Origin: Mycobacteriales bacterium | GTDB taxonomy: Bacteria; Actinomycetota; Actinomycetes; Mycobacteriales; Geodermatophilaceae | Reading direction: 5' to 3' | Assembly (NCBI GenBank): GCA_038233915.1 | Contig: JBBSVA010000004.1 | Coordinates: forward strand, 579-64,578 | DNA length: 64,000 nucleotides | Part shown: positions 6,247-51,109 of the stretch, one piece after another | How positions within the stretch are numbered: the first letter of the stretch is position 1 | How the letters are laid out: every line of letters starts with the position of its first letter | The notes under the pieces: generated by a model | What the model was told of the DNA's origin: nothing | What the model saw: the letters and a program-made list of their open reading frames with translations, nothing else | Database searches by the model: none | Made by a program: the position numbers and the translations under genes

Positions 6247-8334
<2,088 letters not shown>

Positions 8335-17130: not shown

Positions 17131-17175
17131 GTGGTCCCGGCTGCTCCGGCAGCCGGGCCGTCCAGCACGTCTCCA
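17131..17175 (+). repeat. Short-loop member of the stop-codon-anchored hairpin family (after rpsN)
   Basis: TGA-GTGGTC-CCCGGCTGC-tccg-GCAGCCGGG-CCGTCCAGCACGTCTCC. Arms and flanks match the glmS copy at 38826, but the 34-nt core is absent. Confidence 0.6.
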
Positions 17176-24044: not shown

Positions 24045-24142
24045 GGGCCTAGGCGCCTCGGCCCGGTCGTCGTGCCCCCGCAGAGGGGGCGACCGGGCGC
24101 ACGACCCCCGCTCCACCCAGGCCACGATGAGAGAAGAGAGTC

Positions 24143-24588: not shown

Positions 24589-25215
24589 GTGGCCCGTTAC
24601 ACCGGAGCCGACTGCCGCCTGTGCCGGCGCGAGAAGATGAAGCTGTTCCTCAAGGGCAGCAAGTGCGAGTCCGCGAAGTGCCCGATCGAGATCCGTCCCT
24701 ACCCCCCGGGTGAGCACGGTCGCGGTCGCACCAAGGACAGCGAGTACCTCCTGCAGTTGCGTGAGAAGCAGAAGGCCCGCCGCATCTACGGCGTGCTGGA
24801 GAAGCAGTTCCGCGGCTACTACGAAGAGGCCAACAAGAAGTCGGGCAAGACCGGTGAGGTCCTGCTGCAGATCCTCGAGAGCCGCCTGGACAACGTAGTC
24901 TACCGGGCCGGCTTCGCCAAGTCCCGCGACATGTCGCGCCAGCTGGTGCGCCACGGCCACATCAAGGTCAACGGCCGCAAGGTCGACATCCCGTCCTACC
25001 GGGTGACCGCGAACGACATCATCGAGGTGGCTGCGAAGTCCGTCGAGATGGTCCCGTTCCAGGTGGCCCAGGCCGAGGCCGGCTCCAAGCCCATCCCCGC
25101 GTGGCTCGAGGTCATCAGCAGCCAGCTCAAGGTGCTCGTGCACTCGATCCCGGCCCGGCAGGTCATCGACACGCCGGTCCAGGAGCAGTTGATCGTCGAG
25201 CTCTACTCGAAGTAG
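24589..25215 (+). CDS. rpsD: 30S ribosomal protein S4
   Basis: GTG start. MARYTGADCRLCRREKMKLFLKGSKC...QLREKQKARRIYGVLEKQF, 208 aa. Confidence 0.99.
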   Translation: MARYTGADCRLCRREKMKLFLKGSKCESAKCPIEIRPYPPGEHGRGRTKDSEYLLQLREKQKARRIYGVLEKQFRGYYEEANKKSGKTGEVLLQILESRLDNVVYRAGFAKSRDMSRQLVRHGHIKVNGRKVDIPSYRVTANDIIEVAAKSVEMVPFQVAQAEAGSKPIPAWLEVISSQLKVLVHSIPARQVIDTPVQEQLIVELYSK

Positions 25216-25275
25216 AAGGACCCCCTCGCCCCCCACGCCACGCTCCGCGCGGCGCGGGACCCTGCGAGGGAGCCG
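25216..25275 (+). repeat. Stop-codon-anchored hairpin element, long-core copy 1 (after rpsD)
   Basis: AAGGACC, arm CCCTCGC, 34-nt core CCCCCACGCCACGCTCCGCGCGGCGCGGGACCCT, arm GCGAGGG. Aligns with the copies at 38826, 48840 and 50645. Confidence 0.75.
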
Positions 25276-25380
25276 AACAAGCACAGTTCGACGGCGGGAC
25301 GGGCGGACCGATGTCCGTCCCGCCGGCACTGCCCCCTCATGGCGTCATATGGCGGTCGCCGGAGGACCTGGAGGAGAACC

Positions 25381-26445: not shown

Positions 26446-26586
26446 TCGACGGATCCCGTTGCCGGGCGCCCCACGGCGTCCGGCAGCGGTGTCCCGCCGG
26501 GAACGGTCCCACCGGGCCCGGAGTTCCACCCATCAGATGATCGCGCGGCCTGCTCCGAGTCTCGGGCGGCCTGAGGAAGGACCGAC

Positions 26587-27312
26587 ATGCCTACTCCCAC
26601 CAAGGGCCCCCGCCTCGGCGGTTCGCCGTCGCACGAGCGGCTGATGCTGGCGAACCTCGCCACCTCGCTGTTCGAGCACGGCCGGATCACCACCACCGAG
26701 ACCAAGGCCAAGCGGCTCCGCCCGCTGGCCGAGAAACTCGTGACGCTGGCCAAGAAGGGCGACCTGCACGCCCGTCGGCAGGTCATGACCACCGTCCGCG
26801 ACAAGAACGTGGTCCACCACCTGTTCGCCGAGATCGGTCCTCGCTTCGAGAACCGCCCCGGCGGCTACACCCGGATCACCAAGATCGGCCCCCGCAAGGG
26901 CGACAACGCCCCGATGGCCGTCATCGAGCTCGTCGAGGCCCTGACGGTGGCCCAGCAGGCCGTCGGCGAGGCCGAGCGCTCGCGTGGCACCCGCTTCGCC
27001 TCCGGTGCGGGCTCCGCCTCCGCCGCCGGCGAGGTCCCCGTCGACACGACCGCCGTGGCGGACGAGGCCAGCGACCAGGCCGACGCCGAGGCCACCGTGA
27101 CCGACGTCTTCTCCCCTGCCGACGAGGTCCAGGACGAGAGCACCACCGAGGAGCAGCCCACCGCCGAGAACGGCGTCGTGGTCGAGGCCGACGGTGTCTC
27201 CCCCGAGGTCGCCGATGCGGCTGCCGCCGAGGTCAACGCCGCTGAGGTCAGCGACGGTGCCACGGCCGGCGACGCCGCCCCCGGCGGGGAGTCCCAGCCC
27301 GACCCGCGATGA
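26587..27312 (+). CDS. rplQ: 50S ribosomal protein L17 with a C-terminal acidic tail of about 115 aa
   Basis: [46 protein letters not shown]... matches L17. 241 aa. Confidence 0.97.
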
Positions 27313-28186
27313 CACCGACGAACGCGACTCACCGCTGAACCAGAGCACGACGGACGAGCCCGCCACCGACACCGGTGGCGGGCTCGTCCGCGTCCGGCTC
27401 GGGGTCTCCTACGACGGGACGACCCTGCACGGCTGGGCAAGGCAGCCCGATCAGCGCACCGTGCAGGGCGAGCTCGAGCAGGCACTGGCCACGGTGCTGC
27501 GCCACGACGTCGGTCTGACCGTCGCCGGCCGCACCGACGCGGGCGTGCACGCGACCGGCCAGGTGGCCCACCTGGACCTGCCCGCCGCGGTCTGGGAGCA
27601 GCACCGGCCCATGCTGTTACGGCGCCTGCGCGGGGTGCTGAACGGCGACATCGCCGTCACCTCCGCCGAGGCCGTCGACCCGGACTTCGACGCTCGCTTC
27701 GCGGCCCTGGGCCGGCACTACGTCTACCGGCTGACCGACGTGGTCTCTGGCCCCCCGCCGTTGCGGCGAGCGGACACCGTGGGCTGGCCCAGGAGCCTCG
27801 ACGTGCCGGCCATGCGGGTGGCCGCCGCCCTGCTGCTCGGCCAGCACGACTTTGCGGCGTTCTGCCGACGGCGGGAGGGTGCCACCACCATCCGGGTGCT
27901 CACCGACCTCGACGTCGTCCGAGACGCCGACCTGGTCACGGTGTCGGCGTCGGCGGACGCGTTCTGCCACTCGATGGTGCGCAGCCTCGTCGGGGGACTA
28001 CTCGCCGTGGGGGAGGGCCGACGGGCGCCGGACTGGCCCGCGTCCCTGCTGACCCGCACCCGCCGCGCCGACGACGTCCCGGTGGCACCCGCGGGCGGGC
28101 TGACCCTGGTGCGGGTGGACTACCCGGCCGACGGCGACCTCGCCGCCCGGACCCGGGTGACCCGGGCCCGGCGCGACGAGGACTGA
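27215..28186 (+). CDS. truA: tRNA pseudouridine(38-40) synthase TruA (start uncertain)
   Basis: [21 protein letters not shown]...[21 protein letters not shown] matches TruA. The only in-frame starts are GTG 27194, ATG 27215 and GTG 27257, all inside rplQ. Confidence 0.85.
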
Positions 28187-36962: not shown

Positions 36963-38825
36963 ATGTGCGGCATCGTGGGGTACGTCGGTCCTCAGAACGC
37001 GTTGGACGTCGTCCTGGAGGGACTCCGTCGGCTGGAGTACCGCGGGTACGACTCGGCCGGGGTCGCAGTCCTCGCCGACGGTGAGCTGGCGACGGCGAAG
37101 AAGGCCGGCAAGGTCGCGAACCTGGAGAAGGAGCTGGCCGACGAGGCCCTCCCGTTCGCCACGATCGGGATCGGGCACACCCGGTGGGCCACCCACGGCG
37201 GGCCCACCGACCGCAACGCGCACCCGCACACCTCCGCCGACGGCACGGTCGCGGTGATCCACAACGGGATCATCGAGAACTTCGCCGCGCTGCGCACCGA
37301 GGTGGAGGCGACCGGGGTCGAGTTCACCTCCGAGACCGACACCGAGGTCGTCGCCCACCTGCTCGCCGCCGTCTACCCGACGCTGCCGGCCGGTGAGGGC
37401 CGACTCGCCGAGGCCATGCGCGTGGTGTCCCGCCGCCTGGAGGGCGCCTTCACCCTCGTCGCCAGCCACGCCGCCGAGCCTGACACGCTGGTCGCCTCCC
37501 GTCGCAACTCCCCGCTGGTCGTCGGGGTCGGGGACGGCGAGTACTTCCTCGGCTCGGACGTCGCGGCCTTCATCGGGCACACCCGCAACGCCCTGGAGCT
37601 GGGTCAGGACCAGGTCGTCGAGCTGCACCGCACGCGCGGGGTGACCGTGACCGACTTCCACGGTGCCGTCGTCGAGCCGCTGGCCTACGCGGTGGACTGG
37701 GACGCCGAGGCCGCCGAGAAGGGCGGCTACGACTGGTTCATGCTCAAGGAGATCGCCGAGCAGCCGCGGGCCGTGGCGGACACCCTCCTGGGGCGCCTCG
37801 GCGAGCGCGGCGAGATCGTGCTGGACGAGGTCCGGATCTCCGACGAGGACCTGCGCGGGGTCACCAAGGTCTTCGTGATCGCCTGCGGCACGGCCTACCA
37901 CGCTGGTCTGATCGCCAAGTACGCCATCGAGCACTGGACCCGGATCCCGGTCGAGGTCGAGCTGGCCAGCGAGTTCCGCTACCGGGACCCGGTGCTGGAC
38001 CGCTCCACGCTGGTCGTCGTCATCTCCCAGTCCGGCGAGACGATGGACACCCTGATGGCGCTGCGGCACGCCAAGGAGCAGCAGGCGCGGGTGCTGGCCA
38101 TCTGCAACGCCAACGGGTCGACCATCCCGCGCGAGTCCGACGCCGTGCTCTACACCCGGGCCGGACCCGAGGTCGCCGTCGCCTCCACCAAGGGCTTCCT
38201 GACCCAGGTGGTGGCCTGCTACCTGGTCGGGTTGTTCCTGGCCCAGGTGCGCGGCCTCAAGTACGAGGACGAGGTGGCCGCCGTCGTCACCGAGCTGCGC
38301 AAGCTCCCCGAGCAGATCACCGAGGTCCTGGCCGACATGGACGGCGTCCGGGAGCTGGGCCGGTCGCTGGCCACCGAGTCGACGATCCTCTTCCTCGGCC
38401 GCCACGTCGGGTACCCGGTGGCGCTGGAGGGGGCCCTCAAGCTCAAGGAGCTGGCCTACATCCACGCCGAGGGCTTCGCCGCCGGCGAGCTCAAGCACGG
38501 GTCGATCGCGCTCATCGGCGAGGGCACTCCGGTGATCGTCGTGGCGCCGTCGCCGCACGGCCGGGAGTCGCTGCACGGCAAGGTGGTGTCCAACATCCAG
38601 GAGGTCCGGGCCCGCGGAGCGCGCACGATCGTCATCGCCGAGGAGGGTGACGACGAGGTGCTGCCCTACGCCGACCACGTCATCCGGGTGCCGCGCACCC
38701 CGACGCTGCTGGCGCCGGTCGTGACGACCATCCCGCTGCAGATCCTGGCCTGCGAGATCGCCGACACCCGCGGCCTGGACGTGGACATGCCCCGCAACCT
38801 GGCGAAGTCCGTCACCGTCGAGTGA
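36963..38825 (+). CDS. glmS: Glutamine--fructose-6-phosphate aminotransferase
   Basis: MCGIVGYVG...HTRWATHG...SQSGETMDT...NLAKSVTVE, 620 aa. Confidence 0.99.
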
Positions 38826-38904
38826 TGGACCCGGCTGCCCCCCACGCCACGCTGCGCGCGCCGCGGGTCCCTGCAGCCGGGCCGTTCCAGCACGTCACCG
38901 CGCC
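38826..38904 (+). repeat. Stop-codon-anchored hairpin element, long-core copy 2 (after glmS)
   Basis: TGGACC, arm CGGCTGC, core CCCCCACGCCACGCTGCGCGCGCCGCGGGTCCCT, arm GCAGCCG, tail GGCCGTTCCAGCACGTCACCGCGCC. Fills the whole glmS-acpS gap. Confidence 0.75.
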
Positions 38905-39279
38905 GTGATCGTCGGCGTGGGGATCGACGTCTGTCCGGTGCAGCGGTTCGCCGTGTCGCTGAGCCGCACCCCGGGGCTGCGGGACCGGTTGTTCACCGCC
39001 GCTGAGCAGTGCACTCCCTCGGGGGCTCAGCGCACCGGTGAGTCCCTGGCCGCGCGCTTCGCGGCCAAGGAGGCGTTGGCCAAGGCGCTGGGCGCGCCCG
39101 GCGACCTGCACTGGCACGACGCCGAGGTCGTCGTCGGCGAGCACGGGCGGCCGTTGCTCGAGGTGCGCGGCACGGTGGCTGCCCGGGCCGACGCGCTGGG
39201 CGTCACGTCCTGGCACGTGTCGTTGAGCCACGACGGGGGCATCGCCTTAGCTGTGGTGATCGCCGAGAAGGACTCGTGA
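38905..39279 (+). CDS. acpS: Holo-[acyl-carrier-protein] synthase
   Basis: GTG start. [15 protein letters not shown]...[15 protein letters not shown]...VSLSHDGG matches AcpS. 124 aa. Confidence 0.95.
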
Positions 39280-46031: not shown

Positions 46032-47076
<1,045 letters not shown>

Positions 47077-47111
47077 AGGACCCACCCCCCGACCCGCTCA
47101 TCGGGGCCGTT
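47077..47111 (+). repeat. Short-loop member of the hairpin family (after tsaD), overlapping the convergent gene's stop codon
   Basis: TGA-AGGACC-cac-CCCCGA-cccgctca-TCGGGG-CCGTTGCGCC. It keeps the AGGACC and CCGTT flanks but has no 34-nt core. Confidence 0.45.
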
Positions 47112-48351
47112 GCGCCGTGTTCTCGCACAGCAGGACGGTGGGCACGTCGGACACCCGCGTGACGACGACGACGGCGTGCCCGTCGCCCCTGCCGCGCAGC
47201 TGCCTCACCAGCGCCTCCGGCTCCACGGCCGACCCGCGCTTCTTCACCGTCACACTGCCGATCCCGCGCCCGCGCAGCAGGGCCTTGAGCCGCTTGACGG
47301 CGAAGGGCAGCACATCGGTCACCCGGTAGGAGCTGACCCACGGGGAGTCGCTCGGCGAGTCCGAGGTCAGGTAGGCGATCTGCTCGTCGACCAGCGTCGC
47401 TCCGAGCTCGGCGGCCACGGTGGCGACCAGCCCGGAGCGGATCACGGCGGGGTCGGGCTCGTGCAGCCACTCCCGCGGGGCGGCGACCGGCGCGCGTCCG
47501 GGATCGCTGTCGGCGGTGAGCTCGTGCCAGGTGCCGGCGCGCAGCTGGGTCGCCCGCCGCCAGGTGGTGGACGGTCCGCGCCCCCAGAGCAGCGCCTCGA
47601 CGATCGAGCCGCCGACCGACACCCACTCGGCCTCGACGCCGGCCGGCACCCGGTCGTGGTCCAGACCCGGCGCCACCTTGACCACGCTGGTGGGCACCCG
47701 GTCCAGCAGCGCCGCCACCGTCGACCAGGGCGGGGACCAGCCGTCGGGGTCCAGCACCCGCCGGCCACCGGCCCGGCGGGCCGGGTCCAGCACGGCCGCG
47801 TCGCAGTCGGCGACCCGGCCGCCGGTGGCCGCGGCGACCAGGTCGACGACATCGGCGTCCAGCACGGTCACCCCGGTCAGCCCCAGGGTCGCGGTGTTCA
47901 GCGCGGTCAGTTCCCGGGCCACCGGGTCCCGGTCGACGGCGGTCACCCGGGCGCCGGCCCGGGCCAACGCGACGGTGTCGGTGCCCGAGGCGCAGCCCAG
48001 GTCGGCGGCCGAGGTCGCGCCGCCGGCGAGCAGCCGGGCGGCCCGCCGGTCGGCCAACGCCGGGCGGCCGGCCTGCTCCAGGGTGTCGCCGGTGAACAGC
48101 AGCCGGTCGGCATCCGCGCCGAAGGCCGCCCGGGCCTTCTCCCGTTGCCGGGCGACGCCCCAGGCCGGGCCGCCCACCTCGGGGCCGAACTCCGCGCGCA
48201 GCCGGGACAGCGCGGTGACGACGTCCGTGCGGGCGGTCAGGAGCACGCCCGCGCGGGTCAGCGCGGCGGCTCCGGTCGGGGTGGCCAGGGCACGGAGCTG
48301 GCGCAGCGTCTCGGCGGTCTCGTCCTCTGCCACCGGCACAGCCTGGCCCAC
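47098..48351 (-). CDS. Class I SAM-dependent methyltransferase (THUMP-like C-terminal region)
   Basis: ...AADLGCASGTDTVALARAGARVTAVDRD... is a SAM motif I. Start GTG 48351 (alternatives 48339, 48333) is chosen so the CDS stays clear of the groES CIRCE/promoter. The ORF extends to 48465. Confidence 0.75.
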   Translation of the reverse strand: MGQAVPVAEDETAETLRQLRALATPTGAAALTRAGVLLTARTDVVTALSRLRAEFGPEVGGPAWGVARQREKARAAFGADADRLLFTGDTLEQAGRPALADRRAARLLAGGATSAADLGCASGTDTVALARAGARVTAVDRDPVARELTALNTATLGLTGVTVLDADVVDLVAAATGGRVADCDAAVLDPARRAGGRRVLDPDGWSPPWSTVAALLDRVPTSVVKVAPGLDHDRVPAGVEAEWVSVGGSIVEALLWGRGPSTTWRRATQLRAGTWHELTADSDPGRAPVAAPREWLHEPDPAVIRSGLVATVAAELGATLVDEQIAYLTSDSPSDSPWVSSYRVTDVLPFAVKRLKALLRGRGIGSVTVKKRGSAVEPEALVRQLRGRGDGHAVVVVTRVSDVPTVLLCENTAQRPR

Positions 48352-48530: not shown

Positions 48531-48839
48531 GTGACCACCGCCACCAAGGTCAGCATCAAGCCGCTCGAGGACCGCGTCGTCGTCCAGGCCAACGAGGCCG
48601 AGACCACCACCGCCTCCGGTCTGGTCATCCCGGACACCGCCAAGGAGAAGCCCCAGGAGGGCACCGTCATCGCCGTGGGCCCCGGCCGCATCGACGACAA
48701 CGGCAACCGCGTCCCCCTGGACGTCAACGTGGGCGACGTCGTCGTCTACTCCAAGTACGGCGGCACCGAGGTGCGCTACGCCGGCGAGGACTACCTCGTG
48801 CTCTCCGCCCGCGACCTGCTGGCCGTCGTCGTCAAATGA
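48531..48839 (+). CDS. groES: Co-chaperonin GroES
   Basis: GTG 48531 after [51 protein letters not shown]..., 102 aa. Confidence 0.98.
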
Positions 48840-48914
48840 AGGACCACGTCGCCCCCCACCGCACGCTCCGCGCGCGGCGGGACCCTGCGACGTAGCCGTT
48901 CCATCGCCTCACCT
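48840..48914 (+). repeat. Stop-codon-anchored hairpin element, long-core copy 3 (after groES)
   Basis: AGGACC, arm ACGTCGC, core CCCCCACCGCACGCTCCGCGCGCGGCGGGACCCT, arm GCGACGT, tail AGCCGTTCCATCGCCTCACC. Confidence 0.75.
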
Positions 48915-50644
<1,730 letters not shown>

Positions 50645-50730
50645 AGAAGGACCCCCTCCCACCCCACGACGCGCTCCGCGCGCCGCGGGCCCCTGGGAGG
50701 GGACCGTTCCAGTACGTCACCACACCGCGC
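50645..50730 (+). repeat. Stop-codon-anchored hairpin element, long-core copy 4 (after groEL)
   Basis: AGAAGGACC, arm CCCTCCC, core ACCCCACGACGCGCTCCGCGCGCCGCGGGCCCCT, arm GGGAGGG, tail GACCGTTCCAGTACGTCACCACACC. A further 12-bp hairpin lies at 50731-50762. Confidence 0.75.
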
Positions 50731-50809
50731 GGGCCGATCGACCCTCCGTGGTCGACCGGCCCTCTCGGGTGTCCTGGGGGGCCTGTCGGCCCCGGGTGGT
50801 GCTGGTGGG

Positions 50810-51109
50810 TCAGACGCCCGCGGCGACGGTGGCCGGCTCTGTGGCGATGAGCCGGGTGCGCTCCTCCTCGCTCATGCCCCCCCAGACGCCGTAGGGCTCG
50901 CGGACCGACAGGGCGTGCTTGAGGCACGCCTCGACGACGGGGCAGGTGCCGCAGACGGCCTTGGCGGCGGCCTGGCGCCGGGCGCGGGCGGGGCCGCGCT
51001 CGCCGTCGGGGTGGAAGAACAGCGACGTGGACTCGCCACGGCAGGCGCCGTGCAGTTGCCAGTCCCAGACCTCGGCAACGGGCGTGGGCAGGCGGCGGAT
51101 GTCGGCCAT
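50810..51109 (-). CDS. whiB3: WhiB-family Fe-S transcriptional regulator (WhiB3/WhiD-like)
   Basis: MADIRRLPTPVAEVWDWQLHGACRGESTSLFFHPDGERGPARARRQAAAKAVCGTCPVVEACLKHAL...PYGVWGG has four Cys and the GVWGG turn. GGAGGA SD. Sits next to groEL, as I recall for mycobacterial whiB3. Confidence 0.93.
   Translation of the reverse strand: MADIRRLPTPVAEVWDWQLHGACRGESTSLFFHPDGERGPARARRQAAAKAVCGTCPVVEACLKHALSVREPYGVWGGMSEEERTRLIATEPATVAAGV

Follow-up and report, generated by a model that had tools for sequence, protein, structure and literature searches.

A family of stop-codon-anchored structured extragenic repeats in Geodermatophilaceae, similar in kind to REP and TRIT hairpins

Introduction

The Tuberculosis Rho-independent terminator motif (TRIT) is a conserved hairpin restricted to Mycobacterium, with 147 copies that occupy a very narrow position relative to stop codons, and its authors inferred an unknown binding factor or machinery (Gardner et al. 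2011, the RNIE paper; PMC3152330). The motif is centered about 8 nt inside the coding sequence, and it is largely palindromic and bidirectional (PMC3152330). It has been an unexplained curiosity since 2011. In this study, we analyzed a stretch of 64,000 nt from a Mycobacteriales bacterium of the Geodermatophilaceae, a family of rock- and desert-dwelling actinobacteria (GenBank assembly GCA_038233915.1, contig JBBSVA010000004.1, positions 579 to 64,578 of the forward strand). This whole stretch is called the window, and positions given without a locus name refer to it. The window carries a second, seemingly unrelated family of conserved hairpins locked to stop codons, four copies of which an earlier note, made from the letters of the window alone, had pointed out after rpsD, glmS, groES and groEL. 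No description of the repeat was found in the searchable literature, where TRIT was the sole analogue to emerge. We conclude that the repeat family is previously undescribed and that it belongs to the lineage-specific structured extragenic repeats.

TRIT and the repeat are alike in several respects. Each is confined to its own lineage of Actinobacteria, where a genome has about 10^2 copies, each conserves its sequence along with its hairpin at a narrow position relative to the stop codon, and a binding factor is inferred for both. In contrast to TRIT, the repeat lies just outside the open reading frame (ORF) in one fixed orientation, and it possesses a variable stem around a conserved interior and a one-sided tail.

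Repetitive extragenic palindromic (REP) elements, together with bacterial interspersed mosaic elements (BIMEs) and REPINs, resemble the repeat as short extragenic imperfect palindromes that are present in hundreds of copies and transcribed in 3′ untranslated regions and operon spacers. In contrast to REPs, the repeat conserves sequence at the interior and the base of its stem, not along the stem, and its orientation to the upstream gene is nearly invariant. A GTAG/CTAC REP head was found in none of 126 aligned copies, and inverted doublets or clusters of the BIME or REPIN type were not seen in at least 117 loci, where copies are single or in direct tandem. Judged by sequence, the family is REP/TRIT-like in kind and unrelated to the described families, TRIT being set apart by its published description, as its consensus was not among the sequences compared.

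The attC sites of integrons also directly follow stop codons in a fixed orientation, carry conserved boxes at the base of an imperfect hairpin and, like the repeat, fold best on the antisense strand. They are characterized by R″/R′ boxes (RYYYAAC/GTTRRRY), a variable interior, extrahelical bases and mobile cassettes next to an integrase gene. We rejected an attC identity: the sequence after the right box of the repeat, GTTCCAG, departs from GTTRRRY, the repeat is hosted by core genes in conserved synteny (rpsD, groEL, glmS), and its interior is conserved.

Canonical intrinsic terminators and the "I-shaped" hairpins of high-G+C actinobacteria are, like the repeat, G+C-rich hairpins located 3′ of genes. 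The ordinary hairpins of the genomes studied here form a distinct class, with perfect stems of 11–20 bp, loops of 3–6 nt, no shared sequence and no GGACC/GGCC boxes. High-G+C actinobacteria are largely devoid of classical terminators, and the punctuation of their genes and cistrons remains a live question. By analogy with TRIT, the repeat suggests that the phylum may have arrived more than once at boundary elements that are anchored to stop codons and read by a factor. The repeat is unusual in its fixed orientation, its contact with the stop codon, its conserved interior within a covarying stem and its pairs that wobble only on the antisense strand. Its anatomy is clear, many of its copies have been conserved from ancient times, and compensatory variants are plentiful in nature. 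It also offers a tractable system for finding a factor and a function in the culturable strains of Modestobacter, Blastococcus and Geodermatophilus. In addition, a covariance model of the repeat can be used in annotation, where it marks true gene ends and their orientation in these genomes.

Results and Discussion

Anatomy of the repeat

The core pattern had exactly four matches in the 64-kb window, all on the + strand (25231-25263, 38840-38872, 48854-48886 and 50662-50694), and none of 100 shuffles of the window reached four. The genes upstream of these copies were assigned by Pfam to S4, GlmS, GroES and GroEL. As the earlier note had described, the four segments align base for base on the sense strand, 26 of the 34 core columns are invariant in the 34-nt frame of that note, and the arms are perfectly complementary (CCCTCGC/GCGAGGG, CGGCTGC/GCAGCCG, ACGTCGC/GCGACGT and CCCTCCC/GGGAGGG in copies 1 to 4). 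The GCCGTTCCAGCACGTCACC-like tail that had been seen in three copies is present in copies 2–4. The suspicion that this was not a described RNA family was also borne out: Rfam 15 gave no matches in the whole window at gathering thresholds, and at permissive thresholds around copies 1 and 3 it gave chance-level matches only (E > 0.4).

The repeat unit is a hairpin of 72–88 nt, in which the stop codon is followed by GAAGG(A)CC, a variable arm of 7–9 nt, the conserved core, the complementary arm, GGCC and an optional GTTCCAGCACGTCACC tail. The 5′ half of the consensus is stop-(N)-GAAGG(A)CC-arm 7-9 nt-C/T-CCCCAC n1n2 n3n4 CGC-TNC-GCG, and the 3′ half continues after GCG with CG m1m2 GCGGG-N CCC T-arm′-GGCC-(G)TTCCAGCACGTCACC. 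The foot of the hairpin is GAAGG(A)CC / GGCC(G)TTC in the 126 aligned copies: GG.CC of the left box pairs with GGCC, the A of the box faces C, and GAA is able to pair with TTC. Within the core, CCC-A-C-n1-n2 forms an inner helix with m1-m2-G-C-GGG, and the apex consists of CGC/GCG pairing and a three-base loop. The outer and inner helices are parted by an asymmetric internal loop, with C/CC on the 5′ side and NCCCT on the 3′ side. The inner helix had been proposed from two compensated pairs in copy 3; these were found again, and the helix generalizes across the 126 copies. The sense strand of the element is C-rich (C 47%, G 33%), and the G+C content of the window is 72%.

The tail is less well kept. 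Its consensus is GTTCCAGCACGTCACC, an exact GTTCCA start is present in about a third of the copies, and conservation stops at ...TCACC. Among the rpsD orthologues, a single species retains an intact tail and the others show an eroded one. Thus, the tail was an original part of the unit, yet it has not been maintained.

The conserved 34-nt core of the earlier note held in part. A second core subfamily reads CCCCCACCGC-TCGCAGGCTC-GCGGCGGGACCCT, and a third, CCTCAC...GCGAGCCTC, carries a compensated C:G to T:A change. All subfamilies have the same chassis, internal loop and stop-codon position, so that the base of the core and the internal loop are common property, but the apex differs and the core is not monolithic. 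At the stop codon of the map gene, two species possess near-identical arms and different core types.

Distribution of the family

Representative bacterial and archaeal genomes were scanned with the core pattern, which gave at least 117 loci. Among the matches listed, all belong to Geodermatophilaceae or to metagenome-assembled genomes (MAGs) that align closely with them, and the genera represented are Geodermatophilus, Modestobacter, Blastococcus, Klenkia, Goekera and Trujillonella. The best syntenic match to the window is a MAG with 88% identity. We aligned 126 distinct copies (alignment A2) and built a covariance model (R1) from them. When the census loci were searched with R1, about 47 further copies outside the search pattern were detected. 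Thirty-nine of the further copies were counted in 767 kb, or about one extra copy per 20 kb. Extrapolated, this density would amount to a few hundred copies per genome, but only roughly, as each locus had been picked for already containing a copy.

Covariation and age

The earlier note had claimed, from four copies, that the stem covaries. In A2, 312 cells were changed on both sides of the stated structure, whereas column shuffles gave 109 ± 7.7 (0 of 500 reached the observed count) and slid 3′ partners gave 60–91. The covariation score was 0.234, in comparison with 0.081 for shuffled columns and 0.04–0.065 for slid partners. The variable arms are 92% Watson-Crick. Compensated arms were observed among orthologues: CTCGCG/CGCGAG, CTCGAG/CTCGAG and CTCGGG/CCCGAG in the nine hisE copies, and CTCG/CGAG, CTTG/CAAG and TTCG/CGAA in those of rpsD. 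Single compensated pairs were present in the moeZ-like, JAB and oxidoreductase orthologue sets.

Copies within a genome are 77.1% identical and copies between genomes 77.7%. No pair of non-tandem copies within one genome exceeds 95% identity, and the closest pairs are orthologues, at up to 100%. Since likeness within genomes is not above that between genomes, recent transposition, a recent copying burst and concerted evolution or homogenization were rejected. The same figures show that the family is old and that the core of each copy has been maintained on its own from a time before the genera diverged. At orthologous sites, the boxes and arms, which lie outside the constraint of the search pattern, are 68–93% identical. 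At the same sites, codon position 3 is 74–77% identical and the next 30 nt, in an ungapped comparison, 40–46%. From sequence comparison of this kind, there is strong indirect indication that each copy is under selection and that the conserved interior would be read by something in trans.

Stop codons and host genes

Of 119 copies, 96 are preceded by a same-strand ORF of at least 80 codons with coding-type G+C at third codon positions, which ends 12–20 nt (most often 17 nt) upstream of the core. These anchored copies use TGA (66), TAG (21) and TAA (9) as stops. The remaining 23 copies are mostly second or later units of tandem arrays, or lie after short genes such as that for S14. Strand and stop-codon bias, on which the earlier note had staked its claim, is found across the family: about 90% of primary copies adjoin a stop codon, in a single orientation.

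The box starts at about −2 to +1 nt from the stop codon in most copies, and in the window the stops lie 0–4 nt from the GAAGGACC box, in agreement with the proximity noted before. The commonest junctions are TGA-N-GAAGGACC (33 copies), TA-GAAGGACC (11), T-GAAGGACC (6) and T-AAGGACC (6). In two orthologues, the stop codon is within the arm. The type of stop codon changes between orthologues, with the position of the element unchanged.

At least 62 distinct gene families are found upstream. The housekeeping hosts include S4, S14, L7/L12, IF-2, EF-Ts, NusG, GroES, both GroEL paralogues, GlmS, AhcY, Ppc and PurH, and other hosts are HisE, CysH, a MoeZ-like protein, the anti-sigma factor RsiG, an OpuAC-type (transporter) binding protein and a JAB peptidase. 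The hosts had been described as very highly expressed, which is true in the window and does not extend to the family (hisE, cysH, the anti-sigma factor and the transporter-binding protein).

Two coding explanations of the element were rejected. For a hidden ORF or read-through peptide, the stop type, the spacing between stop and box and the arm length all vary, so that no frame is conserved. For a bacterial selenocysteine insertion sequence (SECIS) or recoding hairpin, all three stops are used, the C-termini are native (ELYSK, GGMDF), and the frame through the element is not conserved.

The ribosome-binding region of rplQ (26574-26593) is TGAGGAAGGACCGACATG, identical to the left-junction consensus TGA-G-GAAGGACC. 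Thus, the left box is indistinguishable from a real Shine-Dalgarno context in the genome.

Spread and decay at the DNA level

Arm types recur behind unrelated genes: CCCTCGC behind at least eight, and CGGCTGC, TCGTCCC and CCGCTGC behind at least four each. Thus, part of the covariation is inherited, and the hairpin spread as a whole unit. Loci L074 (6150-6400) and L107 (7370-7620) contain tandem arrays of at least four identical 62–64-nt units each, which consist of core, right arm, GGCC and tail and lack the left arm; L023 contains a similar doublet. These are not clustered regularly interspaced short palindromic repeat (CRISPR) arrays, because the units are identical throughout, the stretch between cores included, as in tandem duplications. 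Segmental duplications occur in L042 and L011, and in L028 one copy is truncated by the next. In L072 (− strand, about 7455-7525), one copy has its apical hairpin replaced by a second, complete but tailless copy nested within it, which indicates that the mobile unit is GAAAGGACC...GGCCG. An origin mainly by insertion of the core into the loops of pre-existing terminator hairpins was rejected, since unrelated loci share the GGACC/GGCC boxes and the arm types, and the boxes are missing from the ordinary hairpins; L072 shows that insertion into the apex of another element is possible. Orthologous sites vary among presence, absence and relics. The history of the family is one of spread and then decay, and the family is now mostly immobile.

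Shared arm types, several core subfamilies, arrays (L074, L107, L023), nested and truncated copies and variable orthologous sites are all traces that a fossil selfish element would leave. Under this explanation, the repeat would be a miniature inverted-repeat transposable element (MITE) or REP-like element without host function, its orientation and stop position would be an insertion footprint, and its stems would persist only since disruption in tight operon junctions is harmful. We consider this improbable. Near-identical copies and excess similarity within genomes are absent, and in six genera many separate loci have kept the core next to spacer sequence that cannot be aligned. The ends GAAGGACC and GGCCGTTC are inverted repeats that match at 6 of 8 positions, but terminal inverted repeats together with a flanking direct repeat or target-site duplication were not apparent by eye, and no insertion sequence (IS) element was identified at the loci. 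A tblastn search with an approximate query of the E. coli REP-associated tyrosine transposase (RAYT) found no transposase in about 1 Mb of locus sequence (best E = 0.16), which is a weak test. Copies were also absent from the viral and phage contigs and from the plasmids searched. Moreover, a T-purine-purine target at the DNA level could not single out true stop codons.

A possible cistron boundary on the sense transcript

Our tentative preference, held with somewhat less than even confidence, is that the repeat is an anciently dispersed REP/TRIT-like hairpin that may now serve as a factor-recognized cistron-boundary element acting on the sense transcript. The whole unit (GAAGG(A)CC, arm, core, arm′ and GGCC, with or without the GTTCCAGCACGTCACC tail) would have spread in an ancestor of Geodermatophilaceae, and selection would since have preserved each copy as a cis-acting boundary element, with the stop codon on its 5′ side and the ordinary hairpin on its 3′ side. 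The element would be transcribed within the mRNA of the upstream gene. On reaching the stop codon, a ribosome would have to unwind the helix at the base, GAAGG(A)CC/GGCC(G)UUC, which is Shine-Dalgarno-like, and the variable stem and the inner hairpin would remain folded. A putative lineage-specific factor would then recognize two features, the CCC-A-C / G-C-GGG helix and the internal loop (CC / NCCCU), which is invariant. Once bound, the hairpin might mark and protect the 3′ end of the upstream cistron and decouple the following cistron, and transcription would not be ended. The analysis directly shows the anatomy, the taxonomic range, the anchoring to stop codons, the orientation, the covariation, the age and the conservation of separate copies. 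Beyond this, the sequences strongly suggest that a trans-acting factor exists; the element would presumably act as RNA, and its particular role in boundary marking or protection is suggested weakly.

Since the element touches the stop codon, interplay with the terminating ribosome can be argued. The 5′ strand of the basal helix is identical in sequence to a genuine ribosome-binding site of the genome (TGAGGAAGGACCGACATG before rplQ). REPs are said, in work of Newbury from 1987, to stabilize upstream mRNA, and E. coli REPs within 15 nt of a stop codon reportedly affect translation through ribosome stalling, a result ascribed to Liang, Rudd and Deutscher in 2015. Such REPs are a precedent for interplay between an element of this kind and the terminating ribosome.

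Operon context and termination

Copies are present inside operons, between groES and groEL, between the S14 and S8 genes, between hisE and hisG (the hisG Shine-Dalgarno sequence follows the tail) and between glmS and acpS. In the resolved cases, the next gene is co-directional in 41 and convergent in 18. A separate hairpin of at least 8 bp is located within 90 nt downstream of 54 of 122 copies (44%), in comparison with 19% of coding-region controls. About 38 of the 54 are perfect 11–20-bp stems with small loops, that is, the ordinary end-of-gene type without GGACC/GGCC boxes. Thus, the element sits between the stop codon and an ordinary hairpin. A scan for consensus U-tract terminators called none at copies 1, 3 and 4. 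Given the many copies inside operons and the frequency of a separate ordinary hairpin downstream, we consider a plain terminator unlikely.

An attenuator or terminator of the TRIT type was also weighed, in which the sense hairpin, together with a lineage-specific factor or Rho/NusG, would cut transcription after the stop codon and set the ratio of cistrons. Gene-end position and conserved sequence mirror TRIT, which was interpreted as a terminator (PMC3152330). The C-rich sense strand resembles Rho-binding RNA, and several junctions have a plausible upstream excess (rplL before rpoB, tsf, glmS before acpS, and nusG). The expression ratios at these junctions are general knowledge. However, the sense 3′ flank, GUUCCAGCAC, has no U-tract, copies lie within obligately co-expressed operons (groES-groEL, S14-S8 and hisE-hisG), the trailing hairpins described above are separate from the element, and a stable hairpin of about −36 kcal/mol is a poor loading site for Rho. 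Furthermore, mycobacterial RNA polymerase requires a U-tract in vitro (PMC3993855), which applies here by analogy only. We regard a TRIT-type attenuator as rather unlikely.

Pairing on the two strands

The 27 modeled pairs in 126 copies comprised 2537 Watson-Crick, 514 A·C and 54 G·T pairs and 295 others. The 47 copies independent of the search pattern gave a similar picture, with 133 A·C and 19 G·T. The excess of A·C sits at four fixed pairs, and A·C on the sense strand corresponds to G·U on the antisense strand.

Pair 1, the A of GGACC against C: AC was found in 96 copies and GC in 21.

Pair 2 (32:52), the A of CCCCAC against C: this pair is fixed by the search pattern in A2. In the 47 pattern-independent copies, AC was found in 23, GC in 17, AT in 2 and TA in 1.

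Pair 3 (35:49), n2:m1: in the 126 copies, AC was found in 65, CG in 29, GC in 19 and AT in 5.

Pair 4, n4 against C: AC was found in 96 copies and GC in 25.

Thus, as the four A·C positions covary, they are real pairs, and their commonest state is a wobble on the antisense strand only. The variable arms show only a weak asymmetry (A·C 23, G·T 15). All 129 copies folded more stably on the antisense strand (mean −47.1 kcal/mol) than on the sense strand (mean −36.0 kcal/mol). Shuffled antisense sequences likewise fold about 8 kcal/mol better, so the energy gap between the strands is partly due to base composition. On its own, the gap therefore does not prove that the antisense strand is functional, and the A·C counts at individual positions carry more weight.

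On these grounds the antisense strand could be the functional one, as a G·U-containing paired hairpin on RNA or single-stranded DNA (ssDNA) complementary to the upstream mRNA. Such a hairpin might, with the help of a factor, bar transcription from running into the gene at its 3′ end, or it might be a folded substrate of a recombinase, HUH nuclease or topoisomerase, as is the bottom strand of an integron attC site. The A·C pairs exceed G·T about 7–10 to 1, at four pairs that alternate between A·C and G:C or covary fully, and the fold is better in every copy, with lower z-scores. In addition, the antisense hairpin is followed by UCCUUC-N-UCA, which is comparatively U-rich for a genome of this G+C content, but two or three U residues are no U-tract. 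An antisense insulator would be expected at convergent gene pairs, and these are not enriched (30% against a baseline of 24%). Most copies lie between co-directional genes, where little antisense transcription is expected. The weak asymmetry of the arms and the share of base composition in the energy gap also count against antisense function. No transposase or recombinase gene was linked to the copies, in the same weak test with an approximate query, and the anchoring to stop codons is explained no better. The G·U pattern favors function of the antisense strand, which we rate as less likely than the boundary on the sense transcript and slightly more likely than the TRIT-type attenuator. The A·C pairs may alternatively mean that selection excludes G from the 5′ half of the sense RNA, or weakens the sense hairpin on purpose.

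Several of the results weigh against the boundary on the sense transcript that we prefer. The usual G·U rule, applied to the four A·C pairs, puts the selected fold on the antisense strand, and z-scores are lower on the antisense strand (−4.2 to −4.9) than on the sense strand (−2.4 to −4.0). An exonuclease block needs no contact between hairpin and stop codon, the many relics show that single copies can be lost, and no candidate for the putative recognizing factor emerged. The earlier note had listed a 3′-UTR stabilizer or terminator among its candidate roles, next to a protein-binding RNA and a REP/MITE-like DNA element. The sense orientation of the copies stands, but the pairing pattern is better on the antisense strand (G·U in place of A·C), so a simple terminator or stabilizer on the sense strand is less secure.

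A more speculative idea, which we rate as a long shot, is that the repeat is the cis half of a family-specific gene-end-marking system. A factor would read the antisense G·U-studded hairpin, as RNA or ssDNA, at stop codons, or would recognize it as substrate in a stop-targeting mobilization. If marking of gene ends is true, its purpose might be to block transcription or other machinery from entering genes from behind. If stop-targeting mobilization is true, the junctions T[GA]AGGACC, TA[G]AAGGACC and T[AA]GGACC look like microhomology between the stop codon and the GAA end. How the copies came within a few bases of true stop codons is explained by none of the four models (sense boundary, antisense function, TRIT-type attenuator and fossil element), and it is the most puzzling feature of the family.

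Copies and relics in the window

When the window was searched with R1, only the four full copies (78–84 bits) were found, together with weak hits on core-less hairpins after stop codons.

Copy 1, after rpsD (25215..25274, +, 78.4 bits): the stop codon TAG (25213-25215) shares its G with the (G)AAGGACC box (25215-25222). The left arm is at 25223-25229, the core at 25230-25263 and the right arm at 25264-25270. They are followed by a degenerate right box, AGCC (25271-25274), and the tail is decayed.

Copy 2, after glmS (38824..38899, +, 78.1 bits): the stop codon TGA (38823-38825) is followed by the box GATGGACC, the left arm (38832-38838), the core (38839-38872), the right arm (38873-38879), and GGCC with the full tail (38880-38899). 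The GTG start codon of acpS is at 38905, 5 nt beyond the tail.

Copy 3, after groES and inside the groES-groEL operon (48838..48913, +, 83.9 bits): the stop codon TGA (48837-48839) overlaps the GAAGGACC box. The left arm is at 48846-48852, the core at 48853-48886, the right arm at 48887-48893, and AGCC with the tail at 48894-48913.

Copy 4, after groEL (50646..50721, +, 82.9 bits): the stop codon TGA is at 50642-50644, the GAAGGACC box at 50646-50653, the left arm at 50654-50660, the core at 50661-50694, the right arm at 50695-50701, and GACC with the tail at 50702-50721.

The short relatives that had been noticed at 17131 and 47077 are real relics. The one after the S14 gene (17131..17174, +, 17.1 bits) has lost the inner hairpin, with TCCG as its loop, and retains the arms CGGCTGC/GCAGCCG, the right box and the tail. 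Its site is syntenic with sites in L007, L078 and L104, from three other species, each of which possesses a full core there. The relic after tsaD (47075..47113, +) retains the GAAGGACC box, the core start CCCCCCGACCCGCTC and GGGGCCGTTGC, and the remainder is deleted.

By sequence, the spacers after map, rpsM and rpoA in the window look like older relics. The candidate after rpsM (24045..24130, +), assigned with low confidence, contains a GGCC-flanked hairpin with a short CCCCC/GGGGG interior and a tail remnant, GCTCCACCC. The orthologous site of L090 carries a full copy and then two extra right-box-plus-tail segments. The GGCC-flanked hairpin of this rpsM-rpsK spacer (24058-24100) may derive from an old copy of the repeat or may have a regulatory role in the alpha operon. 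In several species, among them those of L049 and L055, the rpsM-rpsK spacer contains another long hairpin that is conserved (GCGCGCCGTCGC...GCGACGGCGCGC). The candidate after rpoA (26446..26560, +), also of low confidence, contains GGATCC, an arm, CCCCAC..., a complementary arm and, later, GTTCCACCC; the orthologous site of L090 carries a full copy of subfamily B.

Neighboring hairpins and genes

The additional hairpin 3′ of copy 1 in the rpsD-rpoA spacer (25293..25324, +), which the earlier note had reported, exists as a separate ordinary hairpin and is not part of the repeat. Its stem is GGCGGGACGGGCGGAC/GTCCGTCCCGCC with the loop CGAT, and it is kept with compensated changes in six orthologous Geodermatophilaceae loci. 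It may be a structure of the rpoA leader or of the end of rpsD. Separate hairpins that are not part of the repeat are also located 3′ of copy 3 in the groES-groEL spacer (48915..48958, +) and 3′ of copy 4 (50731..50762, +), the latter probably an ordinary end-of-operon hairpin. Perfect G+C-rich hairpins of 16 bp and 18 bp with 4-nt loops follow genes at 2100-2135 and 27351-27390, the second after rplQ. They look like the ordinary end-of-gene hairpins of the genome, and R1 matches them weakly as core-less forms.

The GC skew of the window was uninformative on the replication strand. The groEL gene of the window (49001-50644) encodes a histidine-rich C-terminal tail, of the GroEL1 type, and a convergent WhiB-family gene (50810-51109) lies just downstream. 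The groES copy of the window (48846-48893) shares its arms and a C·A mismatch (ACGTCGC/GCGACGT-A) with the groEL2 copies of L057, L066, L081 and L082, which belong to other genera, and the groES copy of Goekera carries different arms. The shared arms hint at exchange between chaperonin loci or at a shared source copy.

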